A stretch of 64,000 nt of DNA, taken from contig JAHFJR010000002.1 of assembly GCA_023245775.1 (NCBI GenBank), forward strand, positions 1,902 through 65,901, given 5' to 3'. The notes under the pieces were generated by a model, which worked only from the letters and a program-made list of their open reading frames with translations, searched no databases and had not been told where the DNA came from. Shown here piece by piece: positions 12,101-56,880 of this stretch (the stretch's first letter is position 1; every line of letters begins with the position of its first letter). The stretch comes from Candidatus Peribacteria bacterium. Lineage in GTDB: Bacteria; Patescibacteriota; Gracilibacteria; Peribacterales; Peribacteraceae. The position numbers and the translations under genes were made by a program.

Positions 12101-12937
12101 AGAGAGCAGATGAAACTGATCCATACGAAGAAGGGGGACACGATGGCGATCATCACGATCGAAGATCCCACCGGTCGCATGGAGGTGACGCTGTTCCCGC
12201 GAGTCTATGCCCAGTTCAAAGATCTCCTCGAGAAGCCAGATTCCTTCCTCGTACTCGCAGGCATGCTCGATATGCGTATGGGGCAGCCACAGTTGAAAGC
12301 GGAGGCGATCAAACGTGTCTCCCTCGAGACGATGGTGCAGAAGGCCAAGCAGGAAGGCATGTTCCATGAAGAGGAGACGAAGAACTGGAGTAGTGCCGGC
12401 AGTCGTCGCCATGGAGAAGAGGAGATCCCAGCAACGGTAGAGACGGGCGCGGATGAAGAGATCGCTCCCACCATCGTTCCAAGGTCTCCTGTCATGGCAT
12501 CCCCCTCAGAGAGCCCTCTCGGCCCGCTCGCGGCGTGGATTCAGAGCGGCATGCAGACAGAAGAATCCCTGAAGAAGGTCGGGCTGGAAGGATATGTAGT
12601 GAAAGACGGAAAGTTGAAAGTGCCTGCCTGCCGGACAGGCAGGGAAAGTGAGGATGGAACTGTCAACCTTCCACTGTCCCCGTCCGACCGCATCCGGGCG
12701 GGCACTGTCCACAAGCAGTTTTCCATTTCCATCCACACCATCACACTCCCATCCCGCGCACCGAAACAACTCCTCCTCGATGTGAAGTCGATCTTCGAGA
12801 CATTCCCCGGCTCCGAGAAGGTGCAGCTGAAGATCGGAGAGAAAGATGTGCCGGTGGGACTCACGATCACCATGTCTCCCTTGCTTGAAAAACGCATCGA
12901 AGAGGCGGTGAAGAAGTACGGAGAAGTGGAGAGTTGA
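9113..12937 (+). CDS. dnaE: DNA polymerase III alpha subunit (1274 aa)
   Basis: PHP-domain N-terminus FVHLHCHSTFSLLEA. Conserved pol III alpha blocks (GPGRGSAAGS, PDIDIDF, LKMDFLGL, GYGFNKSH). OB fold near the C-terminus. GTG start 14 nt after the upstream stop. Confidence 0.95.
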   Translation: MKSSDFVHLHCHSTFSLLEAVPSPEEIILRAKELGQTAVALSDKGYTYGLIEFYKAAKDHGLKAILGLETYVAARTRHDKESSSDTRRSPLVLLAETEEGYHNLLQLATKAALEGMYYKPRVDTELLKQYGKGLIALTGPLSGAIPQAALAGDDQRVKMLLEQYRSFFGSENVYFELNDLPNVPGQSETNQQLIRYAKEFSVPLVATCNSHYCRPEDSEAHDVLLCIQKNASVTDTSRFSMMGSDFSMRPFEEMETAFAHVPEALENTRVIADRCSVKIPFGQYKIPSFPVQEGQTEESLLKSLCDTGLERRYGAILKKSPERTQEIQSRLAYELEVIKKMGFSGYFLIVADFICEAKKRGITVGPGRGSAAGSIVSYVLDITTLDPLEHGLLFERFLNPERISMPDIDIDFADTRRDEVLEYVRGKYGADRVIQICTFGTLAARAAVKDVGRAFGVSFAEMNALAKLIPDRPGTTLEEALSTDELQQEIGSNETYRKILEIALKLEGKARHVSVHACGVVITPEPAVQYTALQRAPKDENTIITQYDAKPLESLGLLKMDFLGLKNLTIIQTALLIIERMHSVKIDMATIPTNDRKTFELLSRGETTGVFQLESAGMRRYLKQLKPTAFDDITAMVSLYRPGPMDKIPDYIKCKNGQKDVSYLHPDLESILKPTYGVGIYQEQILEMARVFAGFSLGEADLLRRAIGKKIKKELNAQREKFIRGAVARGYKEKLVTTMFDDVITPFAGYGFNKSHGACYARIAYETAYLKAHYPTDFMAALLSSEDGDTDRISIEIEEARAMGIAVLPPDINESLAHFTSLEGGKIRFGLLGIKGVGESSIRQILAIRDGVDGKHRAPFTSIEDLAMRVPSKLLNKKLLESLAKSGAFDSLGERAMLVSQYDKIADCSKSTCDRGASQADLFESLGGGSANASIAFDPTDPASPHQKLMWEKETLGLYVSSHPLAGLRKYISKKARLIETLTGDDINRKVTVAGIREQMKLIHTKKGDTMAIITIEDPTGRMEVTLFPRVYAQFKDLLEKPDSFLVLAGMLDMRMGQPQLKAEAIKRVSLETMVQKAKQEGMFHEEETKNWSSAGSRRHGEEEIPATVETGADEEIAPTIVPRSPVMASPSESPLGPLAAWIQSGMQTEESLKKVGLEGYVVKDGKLKVPACRTGRESEDGTVNLPLSPSDRIRAGTVHKQFSISIHTITLPSRAPKQLLLDVKSIFETFPGSEKVQLKIGEKDVPVGLTITMSPLLEKRIEEAVKKYGEVES
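12623..12703 (+). repeat. palindromic repeat modules embedded in frame in the dnaE 3' region
   Basis: cctgcctgccggacaggcaggg (12623-12644) is followed by a ccttccact motif. The 27-nt string tccccgtccgaccgcatccgggcgggc (12677-12703) recurs identically at 13394-13420. Confidence 0.8.
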
Positions 12938-15309: not shown

Positions 15310-17073
15310 ATGCTCCGTACCCATACTTGCGGCGAACTCACGGCAGAACACGTTGGCAAAGAGGCGACGGTCTGTGGCTGGGTGAATACACGCAGAGACC
15401 ACGGCGGGCTCATTTTCCTCGATGTGCGCGATCGCTACGGGCTCACGCAGGTCGTGTTCCATCCCGAGACGGACGAGACAGTCTTCGCCCTCGCTGAATC
15501 CGTGCGACCCGAGTGGGTTCTTCAGTTGAGCGGTATCGTCTCCAAGCGTCTCAAGGGAACGGAGAACCTCAGGATGCCGACCGGGGAGATCGAGCTGGTC
15601 GTCTCGAAACTCGAAGTGCTGAGTCGAGCGAAGACCCCTCCGTTTGAGATTGATTCGCAGAAGCCTGTCAACGAAGAATTGCGTTTGCAATATCGTTATC
15701 TGGACCTTCGGAGGGCTCAGATGCAACGAAATATTACATTGCGTTCTCGGGTGTTCCAGATCATCAGGAAATATTTCACGGAGCAGAACTGTCTCGAGAT
15801 CGACACCCCGTGCCTCATCAAGGGTACGCCGGAAGGTGCTCGCGAATACATCGTCCCGTCGCGCGTGTATCCCGGCACGTTCTTCGTTCTCCCGCAGAGT
15901 CCCCAGCAACTCAAGCAACTCTGCATGGTCGGCGGGCTGGATAGGTACTTCCAGATCGCACGCTGTTTCCGCGACGAAGACCTGCGTGGTGATCGGCAGC
16001 CCGAGTTCCTCCAGCTCGACTTCGAGATGAGTTTCTGTGAGCAGGCGGATGTGCAGAAGATCGTGCAGGGGTCGATCGAGCAGATCATCGCTCAGTGCAG
16101 CAGCAAGAAACTGAAGTGGGGAAAAGTCGGCAGCTTCACATGGCAATTCGTGACGGATACGTACGGTTCCGATAAGCCCGATCTGCGGTACGATCTGCCG
16201 ATCGTCGATGTCTCGGAGATCGCGGCAGGTTGCGGTTTCAAGGTGTTCGAGGAAGCACTGAAACTCAAGAATGGGGTCGTCAGGGCTCTTCGCGTTCCGG
16301 GAGGAGCCGTGCTTGCTCGCAGCGAGATCGACACGTGGACGGAGCTTGCGAAGGAGCTCAAGGCTAGGGGACTTGCCTACATTCTCTTCAAGGAAGATGG
16401 ACCCCAGTCCCCGCTTCTCAAATTCTTCAAGGACGGGTTCCTAGGTCAGCTCATCCAGAGAACCGGAGCGAAGACGGGTGATGCACTGTTCTTCGGCGCC
16501 GATACGGTGAAGATTGTCTGCGCCGCCCTCGGTCGGATTCGAAGCGAGTCCGCAAAGCGATTCACTCTCATCGACGAGAAGACGCACGCACTCTTCTGGG
16601 TGACGGACTTCCCGATGTTCGAAGAGAACGATGACGGTTCGCTCACGTTCTCACATCACCCGTTCACCAGTCCGAACGTCGATGAGTGGAAGCATCGGAA
16701 GGAGGAACCCCTCAAGGTGCACTCCGTCTGTTACGACCTCGTGCTCGATGGGTACGAACTCGGTTCCGGTTCCATCCGTATCCACGATCCTGTGCTGCAG
16801 TCTCAGGTCTTCGACATGCTCGGCATTTCCCCAGAAGATCAGCAGAAACGCTTCGGCCATATGCTGAATGCATTCGAGTACGGCGCGCCTCCCCACGGCG
16901 GCTTTGCGTATGGCATCGATCGCGTCGTGATGATCCTCGCTGGTGAGCCGAACATTCGCGAAGTGACGCCGTTTCCAAAGGACCAGAAGGCAAAAGATCT
17001 GATGCTCGGAGCTCCGGCTCCCGTGCCTGCAGAGCAGTTGAAAGAACTACAGCTTTCCCTCGATCAGGAGTAG
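15310..17073 (+). CDS. aspS: aspartate--tRNA ligase (587 aa)
   Basis: MLRTHTCGEL..., class II aaRS motifs (FRDEDLRGDRQPEF, GGFAYGIDR), OB-fold N-domain. Confidence 0.95.
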   Translation: MLRTHTCGELTAEHVGKEATVCGWVNTRRDHGGLIFLDVRDRYGLTQVVFHPETDETVFALAESVRPEWVLQLSGIVSKRLKGTENLRMPTGEIELVVSKLEVLSRAKTPPFEIDSQKPVNEELRLQYRYLDLRRAQMQRNITLRSRVFQIIRKYFTEQNCLEIDTPCLIKGTPEGAREYIVPSRVYPGTFFVLPQSPQQLKQLCMVGGLDRYFQIARCFRDEDLRGDRQPEFLQLDFEMSFCEQADVQKIVQGSIEQIIAQCSSKKLKWGKVGSFTWQFVTDTYGSDKPDLRYDLPIVDVSEIAAGCGFKVFEEALKLKNGVVRALRVPGGAVLARSEIDTWTELAKELKARGLAYILFKEDGPQSPLLKFFKDGFLGQLIQRTGAKTGDALFFGADTVKIVCAALGRIRSESAKRFTLIDEKTHALFWVTDFPMFEENDDGSLTFSHHPFTSPNVDEWKHRKEEPLKVHSVCYDLVLDGYELGSGSIRIHDPVLQSQVFDMLGISPEDQQKRFGHMLNAFEYGAPPHGGFAYGIDRVVMILAGEPNIREVTPFPKDQKAKDLMLGAPAPVPAEQLKELQLSLDQE

Positions 17074-17090
17074 GGAAAATGGCAAGGGTA

Positions 17091-17099
17091 TGCTATACT
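17091..17099 (+). promoter_or_regulatory. extended -10 TGcTATACT, 6 nt upstream of ATG 17106
   Basis: TG at 17091-17092, TATACT at 17094-17099. Confidence 0.4.
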
Positions 17100-17105
17100 A
17101 CGAGG

Positions 17106-18038
17106 ATGTCTACGAATCCTCCTCCATCGACGGTCGGTACGGCGGGGGCTCCATCGGATGGTGGGCGTGAAGCCGCTCGAGTCGCTCGTCTGGGGAAGGA
17201 ACGTGCGGAGAGGGAAGCGAAGCTCCAGCAGCATTTGCGGGAGCAGCATGCAGAGGAGCAGCATAGAGCACAACGGGCGCTGGAACAGCGCTCGTTCGAT
17301 GCGTCCGATCACAAGAGAGCGCAGGAGGGATATCGCATCGAGATGCACGCTCGCCAGAGTGAAATGGAAGATCGGAAGCTTGCACAGGAGAAGGAGGAGA
17401 AGAGAGGTGTGGAGCAGAAGCATCGACGCGAAGAAGAGGTGAAGCGAGAGAAGAAGTACATGAGCAAGCTTCGTGAGTCAGGGGAACTGAAGATGGTTGA
17501 GCAACATCGTCAGAGCATGGTGAAGCGTGACTATGAAGCTGGCCGGCAGAATGCGATGATCAAATTGCAGGCCAAGTTGCAGATGGCGAAGCAGGCGGAG
17601 TCTGCCCACCTCGAGGAGATCGAACGTGAAGTGCGTGCACGCAAGGTTGTGATCGAAGGCGAGACCCACGCGGAGCTCTATCATCTGGAGGGCACGTATC
17701 GCATGCGGATCCATACACTGGAGAGTGAACTTGCTCGCGATACGGTGGGAGCACGAACAGGGAGTCTTCGTGAACAACAGCAGAAGCGCTCTGTTCTCGA
17801 AGCCGAAGTCCGCACCAAGCGTCAACGTGTTGACAGAGAAATCGAAGAGCAGAAACAGCAGATCGCGATGCACGATCGCACGAAGAAAAATTCCATCGAT
17901 TCCGATGCGCAGGTGAAGCGGATCGAGATCGCCGCCGAACACCAGCGTGCCAATCGTCTAGCGGAGCAGTGGTATGGTGACTGCCTCAACGAACTCAAGA
18001 GGGCGTACGATGAGCAGCACTCCAAACGAGGAGCATAA
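17106..18038 (+). CDS. hypothetical highly charged coiled-coil-type protein (310 aa)
   Basis: Long ORF with a K/E/R/Q-rich sequence. The start was chosen from the -10-N6-ATG pattern; ATG 17079 is an alternative. Confidence 0.55.
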   Translation: MSTNPPPSTVGTAGAPSDGGREAARVARLGKERAEREAKLQQHLREQHAEEQHRAQRALEQRSFDASDHKRAQEGYRIEMHARQSEMEDRKLAQEKEEKRGVEQKHRREEEVKREKKYMSKLRESGELKMVEQHRQSMVKRDYEAGRQNAMIKLQAKLQMAKQAESAHLEEIEREVRARKVVIEGETHAELYHLEGTYRMRIHTLESELARDTVGARTGSLREQQQKRSVLEAEVRTKRQRVDREIEEQKQQIAMHDRTKKNSIDSDAQVKRIEIAAEHQRANRLAEQWYGDCLNELKRAYDEQHSKRGA

Positions 18039-18057
18039 CGCAGTACAATGATTGTAT

Positions 18058-18118
18058 GCCCAGGTGGCGAACCTGCCTCCCGGAGGGAGGATGGCAGACC
18101 TGCCTACCGGCAGGCGCG
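18058..18118 (+). pseudogene. degenerate copy of the tRNA-Leu 5' part, interrupted by two palindromic modules
   Basis: gcccaggtggcgaa + [cctgcctcccggagggagg] + atggcagac + [ctgcctaccggcagg]. With the bracketed palindromes removed it matches the tRNA-Leu 5' end gccggggtggcgaaatggcagac (18373-18395) at 21/23 positions. Confidence 0.65.
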
Positions 18119-18141
18119 TCTTCCTTCCCTATTTCTCTTCT

Positions 18142-18408
18142 ATGTTTACAGTCTATGTGCTTCGTAGCCAAAAGCGAGAATATTGGTATGTAGGACTCAC
18201 TGCCAATCTTGAGCGTCGTGTTACTGAGCATCAGGATGGCAGAGAGCGTACGACAAAACCTTATCGTCCGTTTGATCTTGTACACACTGAAAATTTTACA
18301 ACTCGACCTGAAGCTCGAAAGAGAGAAAAATACTTAAAGTCAGGCTCTGGAAAAGAATGGTTAAAAACCCCTGCCGGGGTGGCGAAATGGCAGACGCATC
18401 AGCCTTAG
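18142..18408 (+). CDS. small GIY-YIG nuclease superfamily protein (88 aa)
   Basis: FTVYVLRSQKREYWYVGLTANLERRVTEHQ...ARKREKYLKSGSGKEW is a GIY-YIG (UPF0213-like) pattern. The 3' end overlaps tRNA-Leu. Confidence 0.75.
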   Translation: MFTVYVLRSQKREYWYVGLTANLERRVTEHQDGRERTTKPYRPFDLVHTENFTTRPEARKREKYLKSGSGKEWLKTPAGVAKWQTHQP

Positions 18409-18458
18409 GAGCTGACGGGAGCAATCCCATGGAGGTTCAAGTCCTCTCCCCGGCACCA
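18373..18458 (+). tRNA. tRNA-Leu (anticodon TAG), long variable arm, CCA encoded
   Basis: Manual cloverleaf. Acceptor GCCGGGG/CCCCGGC. Anticodon stem TCAGC/GCTGA with loop CTTAGGA. Variable arm cgggagcaatcccatg. T-arm GGAGG-TTCAAGT-CCTCT. Confidence 0.85.
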
Positions 18459-33068: not shown

Positions 33069-33302
33069 TGATTAGGGAACCTCTGAACAATGCCTTCTGC
33101 TTCGTCATCTGCGCCACTCTTTCCTTGTTCGGGAGCGCCATACCTGCCTGCCTTCCGACAGGCTTGGCGCGGGAAGCATCCCGCTCCCAATCAAATTTTG
33201 GCTTGCTTCCTCGCATAAGAAAATATTGTACATTCTATTGTAAGAATAATTTCATAACAGCAGCGCCCCTCCGCGGGCGCGGCGAACGTTGGACCGTCGC
33301 AG

Positions 33303-33911: not shown

Positions 33912-34224
33912 CTTCAGATTGATCTCCCGATTGGCCTTGTACGAGAGCGGAGCGAAGAACGGCTGCGGTTGCGTCATGAGACAGGGGGAAAATCGGAGGG
34001 ATGGTACGTGAAAATATACTTCAGCGTATAGTGTGGTTCGTACACCAAACAATCATTCTGCGGTTTCTGGCTGCGATTGACAATACAGAATGATAAAAGG
34101 ACAATGAAGATGTTGCAGATTGCTGCAGCTCGTACAGGTTGTTTGTGACATCGTTTTTGATTTGGAGCCTATCAGCCTAGGCTGATGGTTAGATCCCTCA
34201 CATCATCGTCAAAACTATAATCGT

Positions 34225-34301
34225 GGAGCCATAGCTCAGCTGGTTAGAGCGCTTCCCTGTCACGGAAGAGGTCGCGGGTTCGAATCCCGTTGGCTCCGCC
34301 A
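34225..34301 (+). tRNA. tRNA-Asp (anticodon GTC), CCA encoded
   Basis: Manual cloverleaf. GGAGCCA/TGGCTCC acceptor, GCTC..GAGC D-stem, CTTCC-CTGTCAC-GGAAG anticodon arm, GCGGG-TTCGAAT-CCCGT T-arm. Confidence 0.9.
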
Positions 34302-34311
34302 CGTCGTTCGC

Positions 34312-34393
34312 GAACGACGTGGCTCCGCCACCAACTACTCGAACGACGTGGCTCCGCCACCAACTACTCGAACGACGTGGCTCCGCCACCAAC
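34312..34393 (+). repeat. 2.8 tandem copies of a 29-bp unit carrying a copy of the tRNA-Asp 3' end
   Basis: Unit gaacgacgtggctccgccaccaactactc at 34312-34340 and 34341-34369, partial from 34370. gtggctccgcca compares with the tRNA 3' end ttggctccgcca. Confidence 0.9.
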
Positions 34394-34398
34394 CACGC

Positions 34399-34404
34399 TA
34401 CAAT
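34399..34404 (+). promoter_or_regulatory. -10 hexamer TACAAT, 6 nt upstream of ATG 34411
   Basis: Fits the TAnnnT-N6-ATG pattern. Confidence 0.4.
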
Positions 34405-34410
34405 GATTCC

Positions 34411-34668
34411 ATGTGGTACTTTTATGTGCTTCAAAGCATTAAACAGTCGGATTATTTTTACAAAGGATCAACCAATGATCTTCGAAGAAGATTCAGCCAA
34501 CACAACACTGGCGCAGTGACTTCGACCAAGCCATATCACCCTATGCGATTGGTGTATTACGAGGCATATGTCTCCGAGCATGGTGCGAGAATAAGAGAAG
34601 CTTCAGTGAAGAAAAGTGGCAGTGTGCTTGTATCATTGCTCAAGCGTATTCGAGAAAGTCTTGAGTAG
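34411..34668 (+). CDS. small GIY-YIG nuclease superfamily protein (85 aa)
   Basis: WYFYVLQSIKQSDYFYKGSTNDLRRRFSQHN...REASVKKSGS is a GIY-YIG pattern. The longer ORF-track version starts inside the tandem repeat. Confidence 0.75.
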   Translation: MWYFYVLQSIKQSDYFYKGSTNDLRRRFSQHNTGAVTSTKPYHPMRLVYYEAYVSEHGARIREASVKKSGSVLVSLLKRIRESLE

Positions 34669-34670
34669 CT

Positions 34671-34720
34671 CGCGGGGGTTGGCTCCGCCACGTCGCTCGC
34701 GAGCGACGTTGCTCCGCCAC
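34671..34720 (+). repeat. second copy of the tRNA-Asp 3' end plus a 20-nt palindrome, downstream of the GIY-YIG gene
   Basis: cgcgggggttggctccgcca + acgtcgctcgcgagcgacgt + tgctccgccac. Compare the tRNA 3' end + acgtcgttcgcgaacgacgt at 34291-34320. Confidence 0.85.
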
Positions 34721-34748
34721 ATCAAAAAATATTTCCTTTCTACGATTC

Positions 34749-40948: not shown

Positions 40949-41083
40949 TCCTCACCCCTGCCTGCCGGCAGGCAGGTCCCGTCCTCCTCTCCACTGATGT
41001 GGAGAGGAGGTGGCCTGTGTTTCACTAAAAACAGTGCGCCCTTCTCCAGCCCTCAGGCAGGAGAAGGGTCGGGGATGAGGACC
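40949..41083. mobile_element. 135-bp nested palindromic element related to the MITE-like family
   Basis: Ends gtcctcacccc / ggggatgaggac. Serial hairpins: cctgcctgccggcaggcagg (perfect 20-nt palindrome, 40957-40976), cctcctctcca-ctgatg-tggagaggagg, cccttctcc..ggagaaggg. Confidence 0.7.
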
Positions 41084-52322: not shown

Positions 52323-54884
52323 ATGCGGCGCCGAGGACTCACTTCATTCCTGCTGACGATCTTCTTGCTCCTGCAGAGTGTTCCCGCATTTGCGGCTCCT
52401 TGGGCTGCTCTCGCATCTATCGTGACCCTAGACTTTCGCACAGAGATCGATGCCTTCAGTGTGCGTTTGCCTCTCTCAGGATCAGAGGTTCGCTATTCGT
52501 ATGTGCAAGGAAAAAAGTGGTCGCCTTGGATCGTCTTCGACAATGACGGAGATAGCAGCAGAGGAGAGGAGAGCGAGCTCGTGATGCTTCCTTCTTCTGT
52601 GCGCTCTCTCCGGGTACAGGGCGTTGCCTCACGGGAGGATGTCCATCCGATCCATGTATCGAAGGATCCTGTCTCTGTACGTGTCGCATCCAAGACAGCT
52701 GGAATGAATCCAAGCATCATCCGTCGTCGTGAGTGGGGTGCAGATGAATCCTACCTCTTCGATCTGCCGACGAGAGAAGAGACGATGCCCTCCGCTGGAG
52801 ATATCGCGAAGGGAGACACGGTGGTCACCGATTCTGTGCAGAGTGGGAATCGCATCAAGGACTGCCTCGAGGCGCAGCAGAAGTACGGAAGCGAATTCAA
52901 GATTGCGTCGACCCTTTCGAAAGACTCCTCAGGCAAGAGCTATCGTTGGCCCTTGCAGTACAGCTCCGCCGTGAAATTGTTGGTGGTGCACCACTCGGCG
53001 CTCAACGTGAATGGAGACCCACGTCCACCCATTGAACGGATCCGCGCACTCTACAAGTACCATGCTCTCACGAAGGGCTGGGGCGACATCGGCTACCACT
53101 TCGTCGTTGACGAGAACGGTCAGGTCTACGAGGGGAGAGAGGGTGGAACATCCGTTGTTGGAGGTCATGCCTACTGCAACAACGTCGGGACCATTGGCAT
53201 TGTCCTGATGGGGAATTTCGAACTCGAGCAGCCTAGTCAAGTGCAAGTGAAAGGGCTCCAGCGACTCTTGAGTGATCTCAGTCACGAGTATGGGATCGAT
53301 GTCACACGGAGTGTGCAGTTCCACGGGAAGACATTCGCTTCGCCCGTCGTCGGGCATCGGGATCTCCTCTCTACTCTCTGTCCCGGCTACTCGCTCTTCG
53401 GAGTGCTCTCGCAGATCGTCGCGCATCTGAAGTCCGGAGAACTCGATGCTTCGGTACAATTTCCTCCGCCTCGTTCGAGTTCTTCTTCGTCAGCATTCTC
53501 TTCATCTGCGAATGGCGGATTTCTGGGGCTTGCCGAAGGCATTTCGTTCATCGGTCGCACCGCGATCGATATGAACCCGAGTGGGAAGCAGCGTCTGAGT
53601 TTTGCGTACACGGCGGGGGAGGCAGGAGCGTACGAGGGCAAGAAGATCGGCGACGTGCGTCTGTCATCGCCCAGCATCACGCTGATGCAAGATGACGGTA
53701 TCCATCACATTCCAGTGAGAAAAGGCATTCTTCTTCAGACGGATCTTCCGGCGGGTGAATCCGTCACGATCCAACTGATCGTCCAGGCACCACCCGATGC
53801 GGGGAGCTATTCGATGGAGATCGCAGGACTCCGTTTTACGCTCTCCGTTGCGGGTCGTCGTGCTCGCGCGGGAGAGTTCATCAATCCCTTTGCAGGCAAC
53901 CCTGTGCACATCGTGCATCCGACGGAGATCAAACGAGATGCTGCACTGACCGTGCGTTCTGTTTCTCTGAGACGATCTCGTCAGATTTCTTCCTCATCAC
54001 CTTCCACTTTCCCTGCCTTGCCGGCAGGCAGGCACCTTCCACCTTCCACTTTAAACTTTCCGCCTTCCGCCCCTTCTTCCATCCGTATTCGTCTGAGCGC
54101 GTCCCCTTCTCCGACCATCACCTTCCAAGCCGCAGGGAGGATCAATGACACGGTGGTTCCTGCGGGGACATCGGTGCATCTGTTCGCGCGTGGATCCGAG
54201 TGCTTTGCAGCAATAGCCGGAACCCTCTCTGTTCGTGATCGTGTTCTGCGTTTGCAATCACAGCAGTCCGAATTCCTCACGATTGATGCTGTGAGATCGA
54301 ACGTTGGTGCGTACAAGGGCGTCCTCGAGTGCCGTGTCCTTGAGGGGTCTCTCGTGCTCATCAACGAACTGCCGCTTGAAGACTACATGGCTGGGCTCGC
54401 TGAAGAGCCGGATAGTGAGCCGTACGAGAAACAACGTGCGTTCGCGATCGCCGCTCGCACGTATGGCGCGTACTACATGCAATCTTCACAGCGTAAATTT
54501 CCGAGCATGCCCTACGATGGCAGCGACAGTCCTGCGGAATTTCAGTTCTATCTGGGGTTGAACTTTGGAGAGAAGAATCCGCAGTGGCTTCGCGCTGTTT
54601 CGAGTACTGCACACCAAGTTCTTCGTTCTTCGGGGCAGCTCATCAAGTCGCCGTACTTCAGTAGTGACGACGGACGTACGAGAAGCCCCGCAGAAGCTGG
54701 CTGGAAAAATTTTCCGTTTGCAGAAATATTTGCAAGCAAGCGTGACCCGTGGTGTGCAGGCCTTCCTCTCAGCGGTCATGGAGTCGGCATGTCGGGCTGC
54801 GGAGCCCGAGGGCAAGCCATTGCCGGTAGTAGTGCTGAGCAGATTCTGCAGTACTACTATCCTGGGGTGCGGATTCAGGAGTAG
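52323..54884 (+). CDS. exported bifunctional cell-wall enzyme: N-acetylmuramoyl-L-alanine amidase (Amidase_2/PGRP) domain plus C-terminal SpoIID/LytB domain (853 aa)
   Basis: Signal peptide MRRRGLTSFLLTIFLLLQSVPAFA. Amidase_2 block LVVHHSAL...GWGDIGYHFVVDENGQVYEGREG...GHAYCNNVGTIGIVLMGNF...GHRDL..TLCPG. SpoIID-like block EDYMAGLAEEP...RAFAIAARTYGAYY...SPYFSSDDGRT...GHGVGMSGCGA. Confidence 0.8.
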   Translation: MRRRGLTSFLLTIFLLLQSVPAFAAPWAALASIVTLDFRTEIDAFSVRLPLSGSEVRYSYVQGKKWSPWIVFDNDGDSSRGEESELVMLPSSVRSLRVQGVASREDVHPIHVSKDPVSVRVASKTAGMNPSIIRRREWGADESYLFDLPTREETMPSAGDIAKGDTVVTDSVQSGNRIKDCLEAQQKYGSEFKIASTLSKDSSGKSYRWPLQYSSAVKLLVVHHSALNVNGDPRPPIERIRALYKYHALTKGWGDIGYHFVVDENGQVYEGREGGTSVVGGHAYCNNVGTIGIVLMGNFELEQPSQVQVKGLQRLLSDLSHEYGIDVTRSVQFHGKTFASPVVGHRDLLSTLCPGYSLFGVLSQIVAHLKSGELDASVQFPPPRSSSSSSAFSSSANGGFLGLAEGISFIGRTAIDMNPSGKQRLSFAYTAGEAGAYEGKKIGDVRLSSPSITLMQDDGIHHIPVRKGILLQTDLPAGESVTIQLIVQAPPDAGSYSMEIAGLRFTLSVAGRRARAGEFINPFAGNPVHIVHPTEIKRDAALTVRSVSLRRSRQISSSSPSTFPALPAGRHLPPSTLNFPPSAPSSIRIRLSASPSPTITFQAAGRINDTVVPAGTSVHLFARGSECFAAIAGTLSVRDRVLRLQSQQSEFLTIDAVRSNVGAYKGVLECRVLEGSLVLINELPLEDYMAGLAEEPDSEPYEKQRAFAIAARTYGAYYMQSSQRKFPSMPYDGSDSPAEFQFYLGLNFGEKNPQWLRAVSSTAHQVLRSSGQLIKSPYFSSDDGRTRSPAEAGWKNFPFAEIFASKRDPWCAGLPLSGHGVGMSGCGARGQAIAGSSAEQILQYYYPGVRIQE
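53998..54061 (+). repeat. ttccac-flanked palindromic module in frame in the amidase gene
   Basis: caccttccactttcc + ctgccttgccggcaggcagg + caccttccaccttccactttaaactttcc, encoding PSTFPALPAGRHLPPSTLNFP. Confidence 0.8.
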
Positions 54885-56758: not shown

Positions 56759-56880
56759 TGCTATCTTTCCCCTGACGGGGCCGAAGGTACCACCGTTTCC
56801 TCTCGAGGAAGGTTGGCGGACGCGTATTGGGTCGGTTACCCTGCCTACCGGCAGGCAGGCACGCGTCACTCTTGATAGGC
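56759..56880 (-). promoter_or_regulatory. SAM-I-type riboswitch aptamer upstream of metK
   Basis: Minus strand: CUAUCAAGAG...CGCCAACC-UUCCUCGAGAGGAAA-CGGUGGUACC...GGGGAAAGAUAG. P1 CUAUC/GAUAG. The conserved AAGAG, GCCAACC, GGUG and GAAAGAU elements appear in SAM-I order. Confidence 0.7.

Follow-up and report, generated by a model that had tools for sequence, protein, structure and literature searches.

T4 SegB is reportedly encoded by a free-standing GIY-YIG homing endonuclease gene in a phage tRNA cluster, which Brok-Volchanskaya and colleagues are said to have described in 2008. The same protein appears in PMC13096335. Homing endonucleases are also carried by group I introns in the anticodon loops of bacterial tRNA-Leu, tRNA-Arg and tRNA-fMet genes (see the review PMC3984707), and a 2006 survey of the GIY-YIG superfamily (PMC1564403), which recorded a TrmH-like tRNA methyltransferase fused to a prokaryotic Slx1-like domain, proposed a connection with RNA metabolism. 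Here we describe a GIY-YIG gene in a 64,000-nucleotide stretch of DNA from a Candidatus Peribacteria bacterium (assembly GCA_023245775.1, contig JAHFJR010000002.1, positions 1,902 to 65,901 of the forward strand), which we call the window and number from its first letter. The gene lies between a broken and an intact copy of a tRNA-Leu gene. We read the region as a selfish homing-type cassette, in which a Slx1/UPF0213-like GIY-YIG gene of ~78 amino acids (aa) landed in tRNA-Leu(UAG) with the tRNA as its landing pad, and we put the probability of this reading at roughly two in three (0.68).

The cassette resembles the phage GIY-YIG homing genes of the T4 SegB kind in having no intron around it, in lying next to a tRNA gene and in being present in some relatives and absent from others; selfish inheritance by DNA breakage and recombination would be expected for both. 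Unlike the T4 SegB type, it encodes a protein of ~78 aa that consists of the catalytic domain only. The cassettes are found on chromosomes of the Candidate Phyla Radiation (CPR), Bacteroidota and other phyla and hardly ever in viral contigs; their open reading frame (ORF) sits inside a partly duplicated tRNA gene, together with a regenerated tRNA and a seemingly cognate palindrome. Group I introns occupy tRNA types similar to those of the cassettes (Leu, Arg, Met), and the upstream pseudo-copy of the tRNA in the cassettes often ends at ~37–40, near the classical intron site. Unlike those introns, however, the locus has no ribozyme core: Rfam, run in gathering and E-value modes, found only tRNA there and no intron, ribozyme or other RNA. 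The function of the tRNA is kept by duplication, not by splicing. In the searchable full-text literature, which includes the 2006 survey and leaves subscription-only papers outside its coverage, we found neither minimal GIY-YIG genes nested in tRNA genes nor the palindrome described, and no assay of this nuclease subfamily; relative to that literature the cassette family appears new.

The intact tRNA-Leu(UAG), with its CCA encoded, lies at 18373–18458 (ARAGORN; Rfam RF00005, 56.5 bits) on the plus strand, as do all cassette features given below. The GIY-YIG nuclease ORF (88 aa; Pfam PF01541) runs from 18142 to 18408; its core of ~75 aa spans 18142–18366, and its final 12 codons are tRNA sequence. 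As an earlier reading made from the letters of the window (the sequence-only reading) had stated, the ORF runs 36 nt into the tRNA, and the TAG at 18406–18408 is at once its stop codon and the anticodon of the tRNA (position 34). Upstream of the ORF lies a broken copy of the same tRNA. Its positions 1–14 (GCCCAGGTGGCGAA, 18058–18071) match the window tRNA at 12/14 and the tRNA at an empty site in a relative (locus L123, below) at 14/14. They are followed by a 19-nt spacer at 18072–18090 (cctgcctcccggagggagg), a palindromic module in the D-loop after position 14 that carries the variant PAL1b (CCTGCCTCCCGGAGGGAGG); this variant occurs once in the window, and elsewhere we saw it only in loci L085 and L086, at the same tRNA position. 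The copy resumes with positions 15–23 (ATGGCAGAC, 18091–18099; 9/9). A second palindromic module, (C)CTGCCTACCGGCAGG, of the PAL1 family, then stands after position 23 at 18100–18114 (ctgcctaccggcagg), where loci L081 and L082 also carry PAL1, so that both D-loop hot spots for the palindrome are occupied in the window. Past module 2, at 18115–18126, a decayed continuation of the copy (~positions 24–35) runs to the anticodon loop, with C18099 shared: CGCGTCTTCCTT is identical to the anticodon arm CGCATCAGCCTT at 9 of 12 positions. All the features listed by the sequence-only reading lie at the coordinates it gave. It had correctly placed two palindromic modules inside a decayed copy, and its count of 21/23 matches to tRNA positions 1–23 with the palindromes removed is borne out (12/14 plus 9/9). 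It had ended the copy at position 23, however; because of the 9/12 match past module 2, we extend it to ~position 35, and in relatives it reaches positions 35–40. From 18058 to 18373 the insert measures 315 bp, and its non-coding share is less than 90 nt.

Could the upstream similarity have arisen by chance, aided by GGCAG/CTGCC in the palindromes? Judged on the window alone, it could. A standard local alignment of the tRNA with the 200 nt upstream of the ORF gave z 1.3, which is not significant, and an alignment with flat-cost gaps gave a marginal z 3.0, a score equalled by 11 of 1000 dinucleotide shuffles and by several random 200-nt tiles of the window. The sequence-only reading had staked its case on a similarity better than chance, and on these figures alone it would nearly have failed. 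The comparative data show a real copy instead. Against the empty-site tRNA of L123 the pseudo-copy matches at 23/23 (z 6.2, 0/1000 shuffles), and its position is identical to the start of that tRNA; the pseudo-copy in L081 is 23/23 without interruption, and the layout recurs in dozens of loci. We judge the similarity real because of the L123 match and the repetition of the same layout in dozens of independent loci. With these comparisons chance similarity is ruled out, and we leave it next to no probability.

The orthologous neighbourhoods were taken around the closest homologs of aspartyl-tRNA synthetase (AspRS), in a locus order of AspRS, coiled-coil gene, tRNA-Leu(tag). In locus L123 (GCA_043776335.1), whose AspRS is 84% identical to that of the window, the site is empty: tRNA-Leu(tag) starts 21 nt past the coiled-coil gene (30% identity to the window gene over 317 aa, E 5e-31), and both the GIY-YIG ORF and the palindrome are absent. 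The pseudo-copy in the window starts 19 nt past the coiled-coil gene, that is, at the start of the L123 tRNA. This place and the 23/23 match indicate that the gene originally began with what is now the upstream fragment, and that 315 bp were added to it. The two functional tRNAs are identical apart from two compensated pairs in the acceptor stem (GCCGGGG/CCCCGGC in the window and GCCCAGG/CCTGGGC in L123), and the pseudo-copy in the window carries the empty-site acceptor GCCCAGG.

Two other relatives, L122 and L126, show an ORF-less footprint that consists of a pseudo-5' copy with modules, then 14–21 nt, then an intact tRNA. L126 has in addition a degenerate palindrome, a pseudo anticodon arm and the string 'ATG aaacagaacatg', whose resemblance to a fused start and end of the ORF points to an internal deletion of the ORF. 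L081 is occupied, and its protein is 69% identical to that of the window. The pseudo-copy there is unbroken (23/23) and is followed by a canonical palindrome at position 23, then by the ORF and by tRNA-Leu(tag); its upstream coiled-coil gene is weakly similar (E 0.002), and the locus is probably orthologous to that of the window. Since L081 lacks module 1, this module appears to be a later, separate insertion in the lineage of the window. Related genomes were where the sequence-only reading had proposed to look for presence or absence of the cassette, and they are empty (L123), occupied (the window and L081) or decayed (L122 and L126). Homing genes are expected to show such polymorphism at an orthologous site with decayed copies, and the three states at one site support the earlier proposal that a GIY-YIG cassette inserted into a tRNA gene and regenerated it. 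Taken together, they read as the classical signature of a selfish insertion.

Some details of these sites deserve mention in their own right. The acceptor stem of the functional window tRNA (arms 18373–18379 and 18449–18455) differs from that of L123, L122, L126, L081 and its own pseudo-copy, which all have GCCCAGG/CCTGGGC, and the pseudo-copy in L082 bears the version that is functional in the window. The change could be ordinary compensatory evolution, or the cassette could have brought in a foreign tRNA 5' end. In L082 (1035–1259), tRNA-Leu(tag) has GIY-YIG ORFs on both sides: one enters the tRNA 5' end, and the other (MYHIYILRSDKDRKLYT..) begins 19 nt past the tRNA 3' end, behind a TACAAT hexamer. 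As for the neighbours in the window, AspRS (15310–17073) is 72–86% identical to proteins of Peribacteraceae/Peregrinibacteria (CPR). The coiled-coil protein next door (17079–18038; 319 aa, rich in Glu, Arg and Lys) is fast-evolving, at 30% identity to its L123 ortholog compared with 84% for AspRS, and has no Pfam annotation in relatives.

How general is the nesting? A scan with the core protein yielded 80 metagenome loci at 49–68% identity, which are the best tblastn matches and not a random sample of the family. A tRNA on the same strand abuts the ORF in 75 of them, downstream in 59 (typical gap 4–34 nt) and upstream in 16; most of the five others stop within ~50–150 nt of the ORF. A homing gene is expected in or beside a conserved target, and here 75/80 genes are nested in a tRNA gene. 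The enrichment of GIY-YIG genes beside tRNAs that the sequence-only reading had made a test of its proposal is seen in this proportion and in the window, where it applies to two of two. The tRNAs are of the Leu (all five anticodons, counting L081–L086), Arg, Met, Gly and Phe types. In nearly every locus the opposite flank of the ORF resembles the same tRNA, with z 5–65 in a shuffle test. Where the tRNA lies downstream, a copy of its 5' part (position 1 to ~35–40) lies upstream of the ORF; where it lies upstream, its 3' part is repeated on the downstream side of the ORF. In L044 and L070 the ORF stands between a broken copy of full length and the intact tRNA that follows.

The edges of these repeats are informative. 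Of 41 loci in which this could be tested, 37 have a repeat whose first nucleotide is tRNA +1, with no relation between the sequences further upstream, which argues against simple tandem duplication and for tRNA sequence as the unit of homology. The two copies share an upstream flank in only 4/41, and local tandem duplication that included the flanks is thereby ruled out as the general origin of the repeats. The type of tRNA follows the protein: the nearest neighbour of a protein has the same tRNA type in 71/75 cases (permutation mean 42, maximum 54). Upstream and downstream layouts are mixed within protein clades, and in syntenic Bacteroidota-like loci the ORF lies upstream of tRNA-Leu(cag) in L012 and downstream of tRNA-Leu(gag) in L022, L059 and L073.

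A partly duplicated tRNA gene calls to mind integrative elements and prophages that use tRNA genes as attachment sites. Such elements are generally known to duplicate part of the gene and regenerate it, and tRNA-gene fragments are common in prokaryotic genomes. Like them, the cassette has a part of the tRNA on both sides, one intact tRNA and both empty and occupied alleles. The region might then be the scar of an integrase-driven element, with the GIY-YIG gene as leftover cargo. Unlike such elements, however, which measure kilobases, the cassette is ~0.3 kb and lacks a tyrosine or serine recombinase: between the repeats of the window the 88-aa ORF is the only gene, with no integrase or other element gene, and the same holds in related loci. 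The whole insert of 315 bp is hard to reconcile with a scar, as are the recurrence of the ORF-plus-tRNA unit in 75/80 loci, with the small ORF alone between the repeats, and the near absence of the family from viral contigs. The cassette also usually duplicates the tRNA 5' part, up to the anticodon loop, and specific palindromes have colonised the pseudo-copy. We regard a scar as very improbable and close to refuted.

The protein itself has the hallmarks of a nuclease. ORF residues 2–71 match the GIY-YIG model of Pfam (PF01541, E 6.5e-15), scoring 55.6 bits where the cutoff is 22.6. Residues Y5, Y16, G18, R26, H30 and E62 are invariant among 25 diverse homologs, including the second such ORF in the window, and appear to be the catalytic-type set of GIY-YIG enzymes (motif tyrosines, Arg, His/Tyr and Glu). 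A dN/dS of 0.10–0.30 against relatives indicates purifying selection, and by these signs the nuclease gene looks active. The conserved protein has ~75–80 aa (about 78) and contains the catalytic domain only. In a profile search against solved structures, the best matches were the UPF0213 proteins 1zg2 (BH0048; E 1.4e-9) and 1ywl (EF2693; E 1.7e-9), followed by SLX1, with I-TevI as a distant match. The profiles place the cassette protein in the GIY-YIG superfamily, in a Slx1/UPF0213-like minimal group, nearer to UPF0213 and SLX1 than to I-TevI-type enzymes. It shares domain, size and motif pattern with the stand-alone Slx1-like/UPF0213 proteins (Slx1 cluster; Dunin-Horkawicz et al. 2006); its identity to them is low, and PMC1564403 mentions for them no link to tRNA genes, pseudo-tRNAs or palindromes. 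NCBIfam offered no informative family for the ORF.

The family is large, with 4830 clusters (50% identity) at E<=1e-10, and its hosts comprise many CPR classes, Bacteroidota, Omnitrophota and others, with protein identities of 60–70% across phyla. In 2.9 million viral contigs there were only 4 related loci, and a phage origin was rejected on this ground.

Might the gene simply serve its host? It could be co-transcribed with the tRNA and encode, for example, a nuclease for the processing, repair or protection of tRNA genes or transcripts, and the pseudo-copies could come from ordinary local duplication. The tight same-strand linkage, with gaps of a few nt, the purifying selection, the protein clades specific to tRNA type and the fusion of a Slx1-like domain to a TrmH-like tRNA methyltransferase (PMC1564403) would all suit such a role. 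Against it, the gene is patchy in close relatives with identical tRNAs (L123 is empty, and L122 and L126 have the ORF deleted), and its position shifts between syntenic loci. It occurs with several tRNA types, two unrelated cassettes stand within one 64-kb window, and the duplications mostly start at tRNA +1, without local flanks. The host range is very wide, at 60–70% protein identity across phyla, and the PADLOC defence models matched neither ORF of the window. We consider a host function improbable.

The palindromes form a second line of evidence. The PAL1 consensus is a perfect 20-mer, CCTGCCTGCCGGCAGGCAGG, and module 2 of the window belongs to this family. PAL1-like palindromes occur in 62/80 loci of the first nuclease subfamily, where PAL2 was found in 0/80; conversely, PAL2 occurs in 5/5 loci of a second subfamily (below), and PAL1 in 0/5. 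To judge from this distribution, the palindromes are cognate to the nuclease subfamily. The canonical 20-nt PAL1 splits the partial tRNA copy in ~60/80 loci. Its density is 2.19 per kb beside the ORF and 0.064 per kb elsewhere in the same loci, a 34-fold difference. Each PAL1 is a clean insertion, beyond which the pseudo-copy resumes in register. Insertions in pseudo-tRNAs fall in the D-loop, anticodon loop and T-loop, sometimes two or three per copy. In Leu cassettes the commonest place is after positions 22–24 (20 cases), followed by positions 14/15 (16 cases) and the T-arm (9 cases); in Arg cassettes it is after position 22 (6 cases). Variants of both PAL1 and PAL2 retain their palindromy through compensatory changes.

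Two other accounts of the palindromes were rejected. They are not the recombination junction of the cassette: the pseudo-tRNA is in register across them, they occur in multiple copies, L081 lacks module 1, and they are also present in an ORF-less pseudo-tRNA. Nor are they sequencing adapters or assembly artefacts, as they occur in isolate genomes and in many independent projects, keep their pairing in variant copies and sit at defined tRNA positions.

Palindromes were also seen in tRNA copies of other kinds. In L012 (3429–3552), a complete pseudo-tRNA-Leu(gag) with PAL1 in its D-loop and T-loop is separated from the intact gene downstream by 75 nt that contain no ORF, which indicates that a nuclease gene need not be adjacent for palindromes to mark a redundant tRNA copy. 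In full-length tRNA-like genes, PAL1 lies in the variable region, anticodon loop or T-stem (L111, 2239–2330; L088, ~8616; L044, 2892–2985; L070, 605–697; L111 and L088 are viral contigs). ARAGORN labels them as tRNAs that are long or contain an intron, although these copies are probably dead.

Beyond the cassettes, PAL1 is found on its own. The window holds at least five further PAL1-like copies (12623–12643, 33143–33162, 40957–40976, 54012–54032 and 56840–56859), all intergenic and away from tRNAs; the 54012 copy has the same short sequence (caccttccac..) on both flanks. Among GTDB species genomes, more than 120 stretches (L127–L246), from many phyla, contain the exact 20-mer, and it is present at 42 sites in viral contigs (L087–L121; 38–68% GC). 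The hosts include CPR, Bacteroidota, Planctomycetota, Omnitrophota, Proteobacteria, Chloroflexi and viral contigs, and among cultured Bacteroidota Winogradskyella echinorum KCTC 22026, Flagellimonas yonaguniensis and Longitalea luteola. Solo copies are not regularly bordered by a target duplication, and their flanks show a weak preference for A (-1) and T (+1).

This distribution raises the possibility of a two-component system of palindrome and nuclease, like REP/RAYT. The palindrome would be the mobile or recognised unit, and a dimeric mini GIY-YIG protein would bind, cut and spread it; tRNA loops or cloverleaf-like DNA would be good substrates, and the tRNA duplications would be by-products. 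Such a system would account for several of the results above: the separate palindrome of each nuclease subfamily, the palindromy kept through compensatory changes, the clean insertion of PAL1 at the D-loop (14/15 and 22–24), anticodon loop and T-loop, and the redundant tRNA copy of L012 that was hit by PAL1 with no ORF between the copies. It would also accommodate the spread of the exact 20-mer over many phyla and viral contigs, far above chance, the overlap of these phyla with the hosts of the nuclease family, and the five or more further PAL1-like copies in the window. Around PAL2, repeats of 7–10 nt of the tRNA 3' end resemble a target-site duplication. The likeness to REP/RAYT lies in dispersed intergenic palindromes and in a small nuclease gene flanked by its own type of palindrome. 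Unlike the RAYT enzymes, however, that of the cassette is a GIY-YIG and not an HUH (Y1) protein; the cassette is linked to tRNA genes, and its palindrome is identical across phyla rather than species-specific. Further difficulties are that the 8 kb around most PAL1 copies hold no GIY-YIG gene, that solo copies show no regular target-site duplication and only the weak A/T flank preference, and that no GIY-YIG protein is known to act as a transposase. A palindrome inside a pseudo-copy also travels with the ORF by descent, which could mimic a cognate pattern without any functional link. We think a system of this kind doubtful, although it overlaps with the selfish-cassette reading and the two are not mutually exclusive.

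A related idea, which we put forward tentatively and do not favour, is that the 78-aa GIY-YIG proteins and their cognate 18–20-nt palindromes (PAL1, CCTGCCTGCCGGCAGGCAGG; PAL2, CGTCGnTCGCGAnCGACG) form an unrecognised class of minimal mobile elements. A dimeric, domain-only nuclease might recognise the palindrome or a hairpin, insert the palindrome into structured DNA such as tRNA-gene loops, and nest its own gene in duplicated tRNA genes. If true, this would explain why the identical 20-mer occurs across CPR, Bacteroidota, Planctomycetota, Proteobacteria and Omnitrophota and their viruses.

The reading that we prefer remains the selfish homing-type cassette, and its steps may be sketched as follows. 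The nuclease would nick or cut either the DNA of a tRNA gene or its cognate palindrome. An occupied copy would then serve as template for recombinational repair, with the tRNA sequence on both sides as homology arms, and the cassette would be copied into tRNA genes of the same type. Since the insert ends with a copy of the tRNA 5' part, a complete tRNA-Leu stands directly after the ORF; one working tRNA would always be kept, and insertion would therefore cost the host little. The displaced original 5' part (position 1 to ~35) has stayed upstream beside the old flank, and was later split by the two palindromic modules. The ORF and tRNA would be co-transcribed from the resident tRNA promoter. 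The palindromes may be a binding or cleavage site of the protein, or an operator. Alternatively, by chopping the direct repeat into pieces of 14 nt and 9 nt, they may make repeat-mediated deletion rare, and such a deletion would restore exactly the L123 state. The process may be homing, with cleavage by the nuclease and repair, or another form of integration.

Several points weigh against this reading. An intact tRNA is regenerated, so that insertion would leave undamaged any target contained entirely in the tRNA, as homing typically does not. In the occupied allele, palindromes interrupt the pseudo-copy, and the native junction with the upstream flank has been lost. The protein is without a DNA-binding domain for a long target, unlike characterised GIY-YIG homing endonucleases, and cutting of tRNA genes by the nuclease is a prediction. 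A domesticated gene could likewise show purifying selection, and could be shared, as the cassette probably is, between the window and L081, which is more distant. The promoter was assigned from -10-like hexamers, where a consensus scan found none. The 80 loci, as the best matches, are not a random sample. Finally, 108 of 125 exact PAL1 sites in genomes are near neither a tRNA nor a GIY-YIG gene, and ~39 of the 42 in viral contigs lie away from both; these unlinked copies suggest that the palindrome has a life of its own, beyond what the homing-type cassette accounts for.

If the selfish-cassette reading holds, one 78-aa nuclease and a tRNA landing pad would be among the smallest self-propagating elements known, and an abundant one, its protein clusters numbering thousands, in phyla as little understood as the CPR. 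It would give a concrete, testable function to the UPF0213/prokaryotic Slx1-like family, which has solved structures, and would offer a route for the duplication, breakage and replacement of tRNA genes, including turnover of acceptor stems. It would also point to a compact enzyme, specific to sequence or structure, with a palindromic or tRNA-gene target, as a possible tool. The layout would explain certain annotation artefacts as well. Gene calls of homologs read through tRNA and palindrome features, giving peptides such as ..RAQVAKWQTRQP and LPAGRQA; over-called ORFs of this kind account for LPAGRQA, VAKWQTRQP and RSRATW, and pseudo-tRNA fragments are called intron-bearing tRNAs. The 20-mer palindrome shared across phyla is a phenomenon in its own right.

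A sigma-70 consensus scan found no full plus-strand promoter 5' of either cassette, and a terminator scan returned only a weak terminator-like match, on palindrome 2. Read directly, however, the sequence holds a -10-like hexamer, TACAAT, at 18044–18049, 8 nt 5' of the pseudo-tRNA start. Comparable hexamers stand 7–10 nt 5' of tRNA +1 in the empty L123 and 5' of the pseudo-copy in L081, L122 and L126. This placement suggests that the ORF and tRNA form one transcript from the old tRNA promoter, and TACAAT is probably that resident tRNA-Leu promoter, now serving both cassette and tRNA. Most family members have their stop codon 4–30 nt ahead of the tRNA; the ORFs P0002, P0004 and P0008 end on the anticodon as the window ORF does. 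The anticodon stop is presumably a by-product: in this Peribacteraceae clade the ORF has lost the stop of its own, and reading in frame first meets a stop at the TAG of tRNA-Leu(UAG). With the stop inside the tRNA, an RNase P cut at 18373 on a joint transcript would leave a stop-less mRNA, a substrate for tagging by transfer-messenger RNA (tmRNA); this could limit expression of the nuclease, or could simply be tolerated.

The window contains a second cassette. Its only tRNA genes are those for Leu and Asp and its only GIY-YIG ORFs are two, so that each tRNA carries one. The second host is tRNA-Asp(GUC) at 34225–34301 (ARAGORN, Rfam), and the second ORF, of 85 aa, lies downstream at 34411–34668 (phmmer E 8e-12 to the first ORF, 37% identity); we call its subfamily WIN2. 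It is bracketed by 40-nt repeats at 34291–34330 and 34680–34719. The left repeat consists of the tRNA 3' end, PAL2 (ACGTCGTTCGCGAACGACGT, 34301–34320) and a repeat of the tRNA 3' end, and two further 29-nt tandem units follow it, to 34396. On the right, at 34669–34719, there is a pseudo-3' part of tRNA-Asp, from T-stem to CCA (alignment z 5.6; direct repeat D1, inverted repeat I1), then PAL2' (ACGTCGCTCGCGAGCGACGT, 34690–34709), a compensated variant of PAL2, and another 3' end, so that a pseudo T-arm stands 3' of the ORF. WIN2 relatives sit downstream of tRNA-Ser or tRNA-Trp in the same arrangement: the tRNA end (...CCA), PAL2, and a repeat of the final 7–10 nt of the tRNA at that locus. A 12-nt inverted repeat, TTTTTGATTTGG / CCACATCAAAAA (34154–34165 and 34717–34728; 11/12 paired), encloses tRNA-Asp and the cassette, and may be due to chance. 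A TACAAT hexamer precedes the second ORF at 34399–34404 and ends 6 nt before its ATG, a spacing that would fit a leaderless mRNA. The near-identical string tacaatgattNNatg occurs both here, at 34399–34413 before the ATG of the second ORF, and at 18044–18058, before the pseudo-tRNA of the first cassette.

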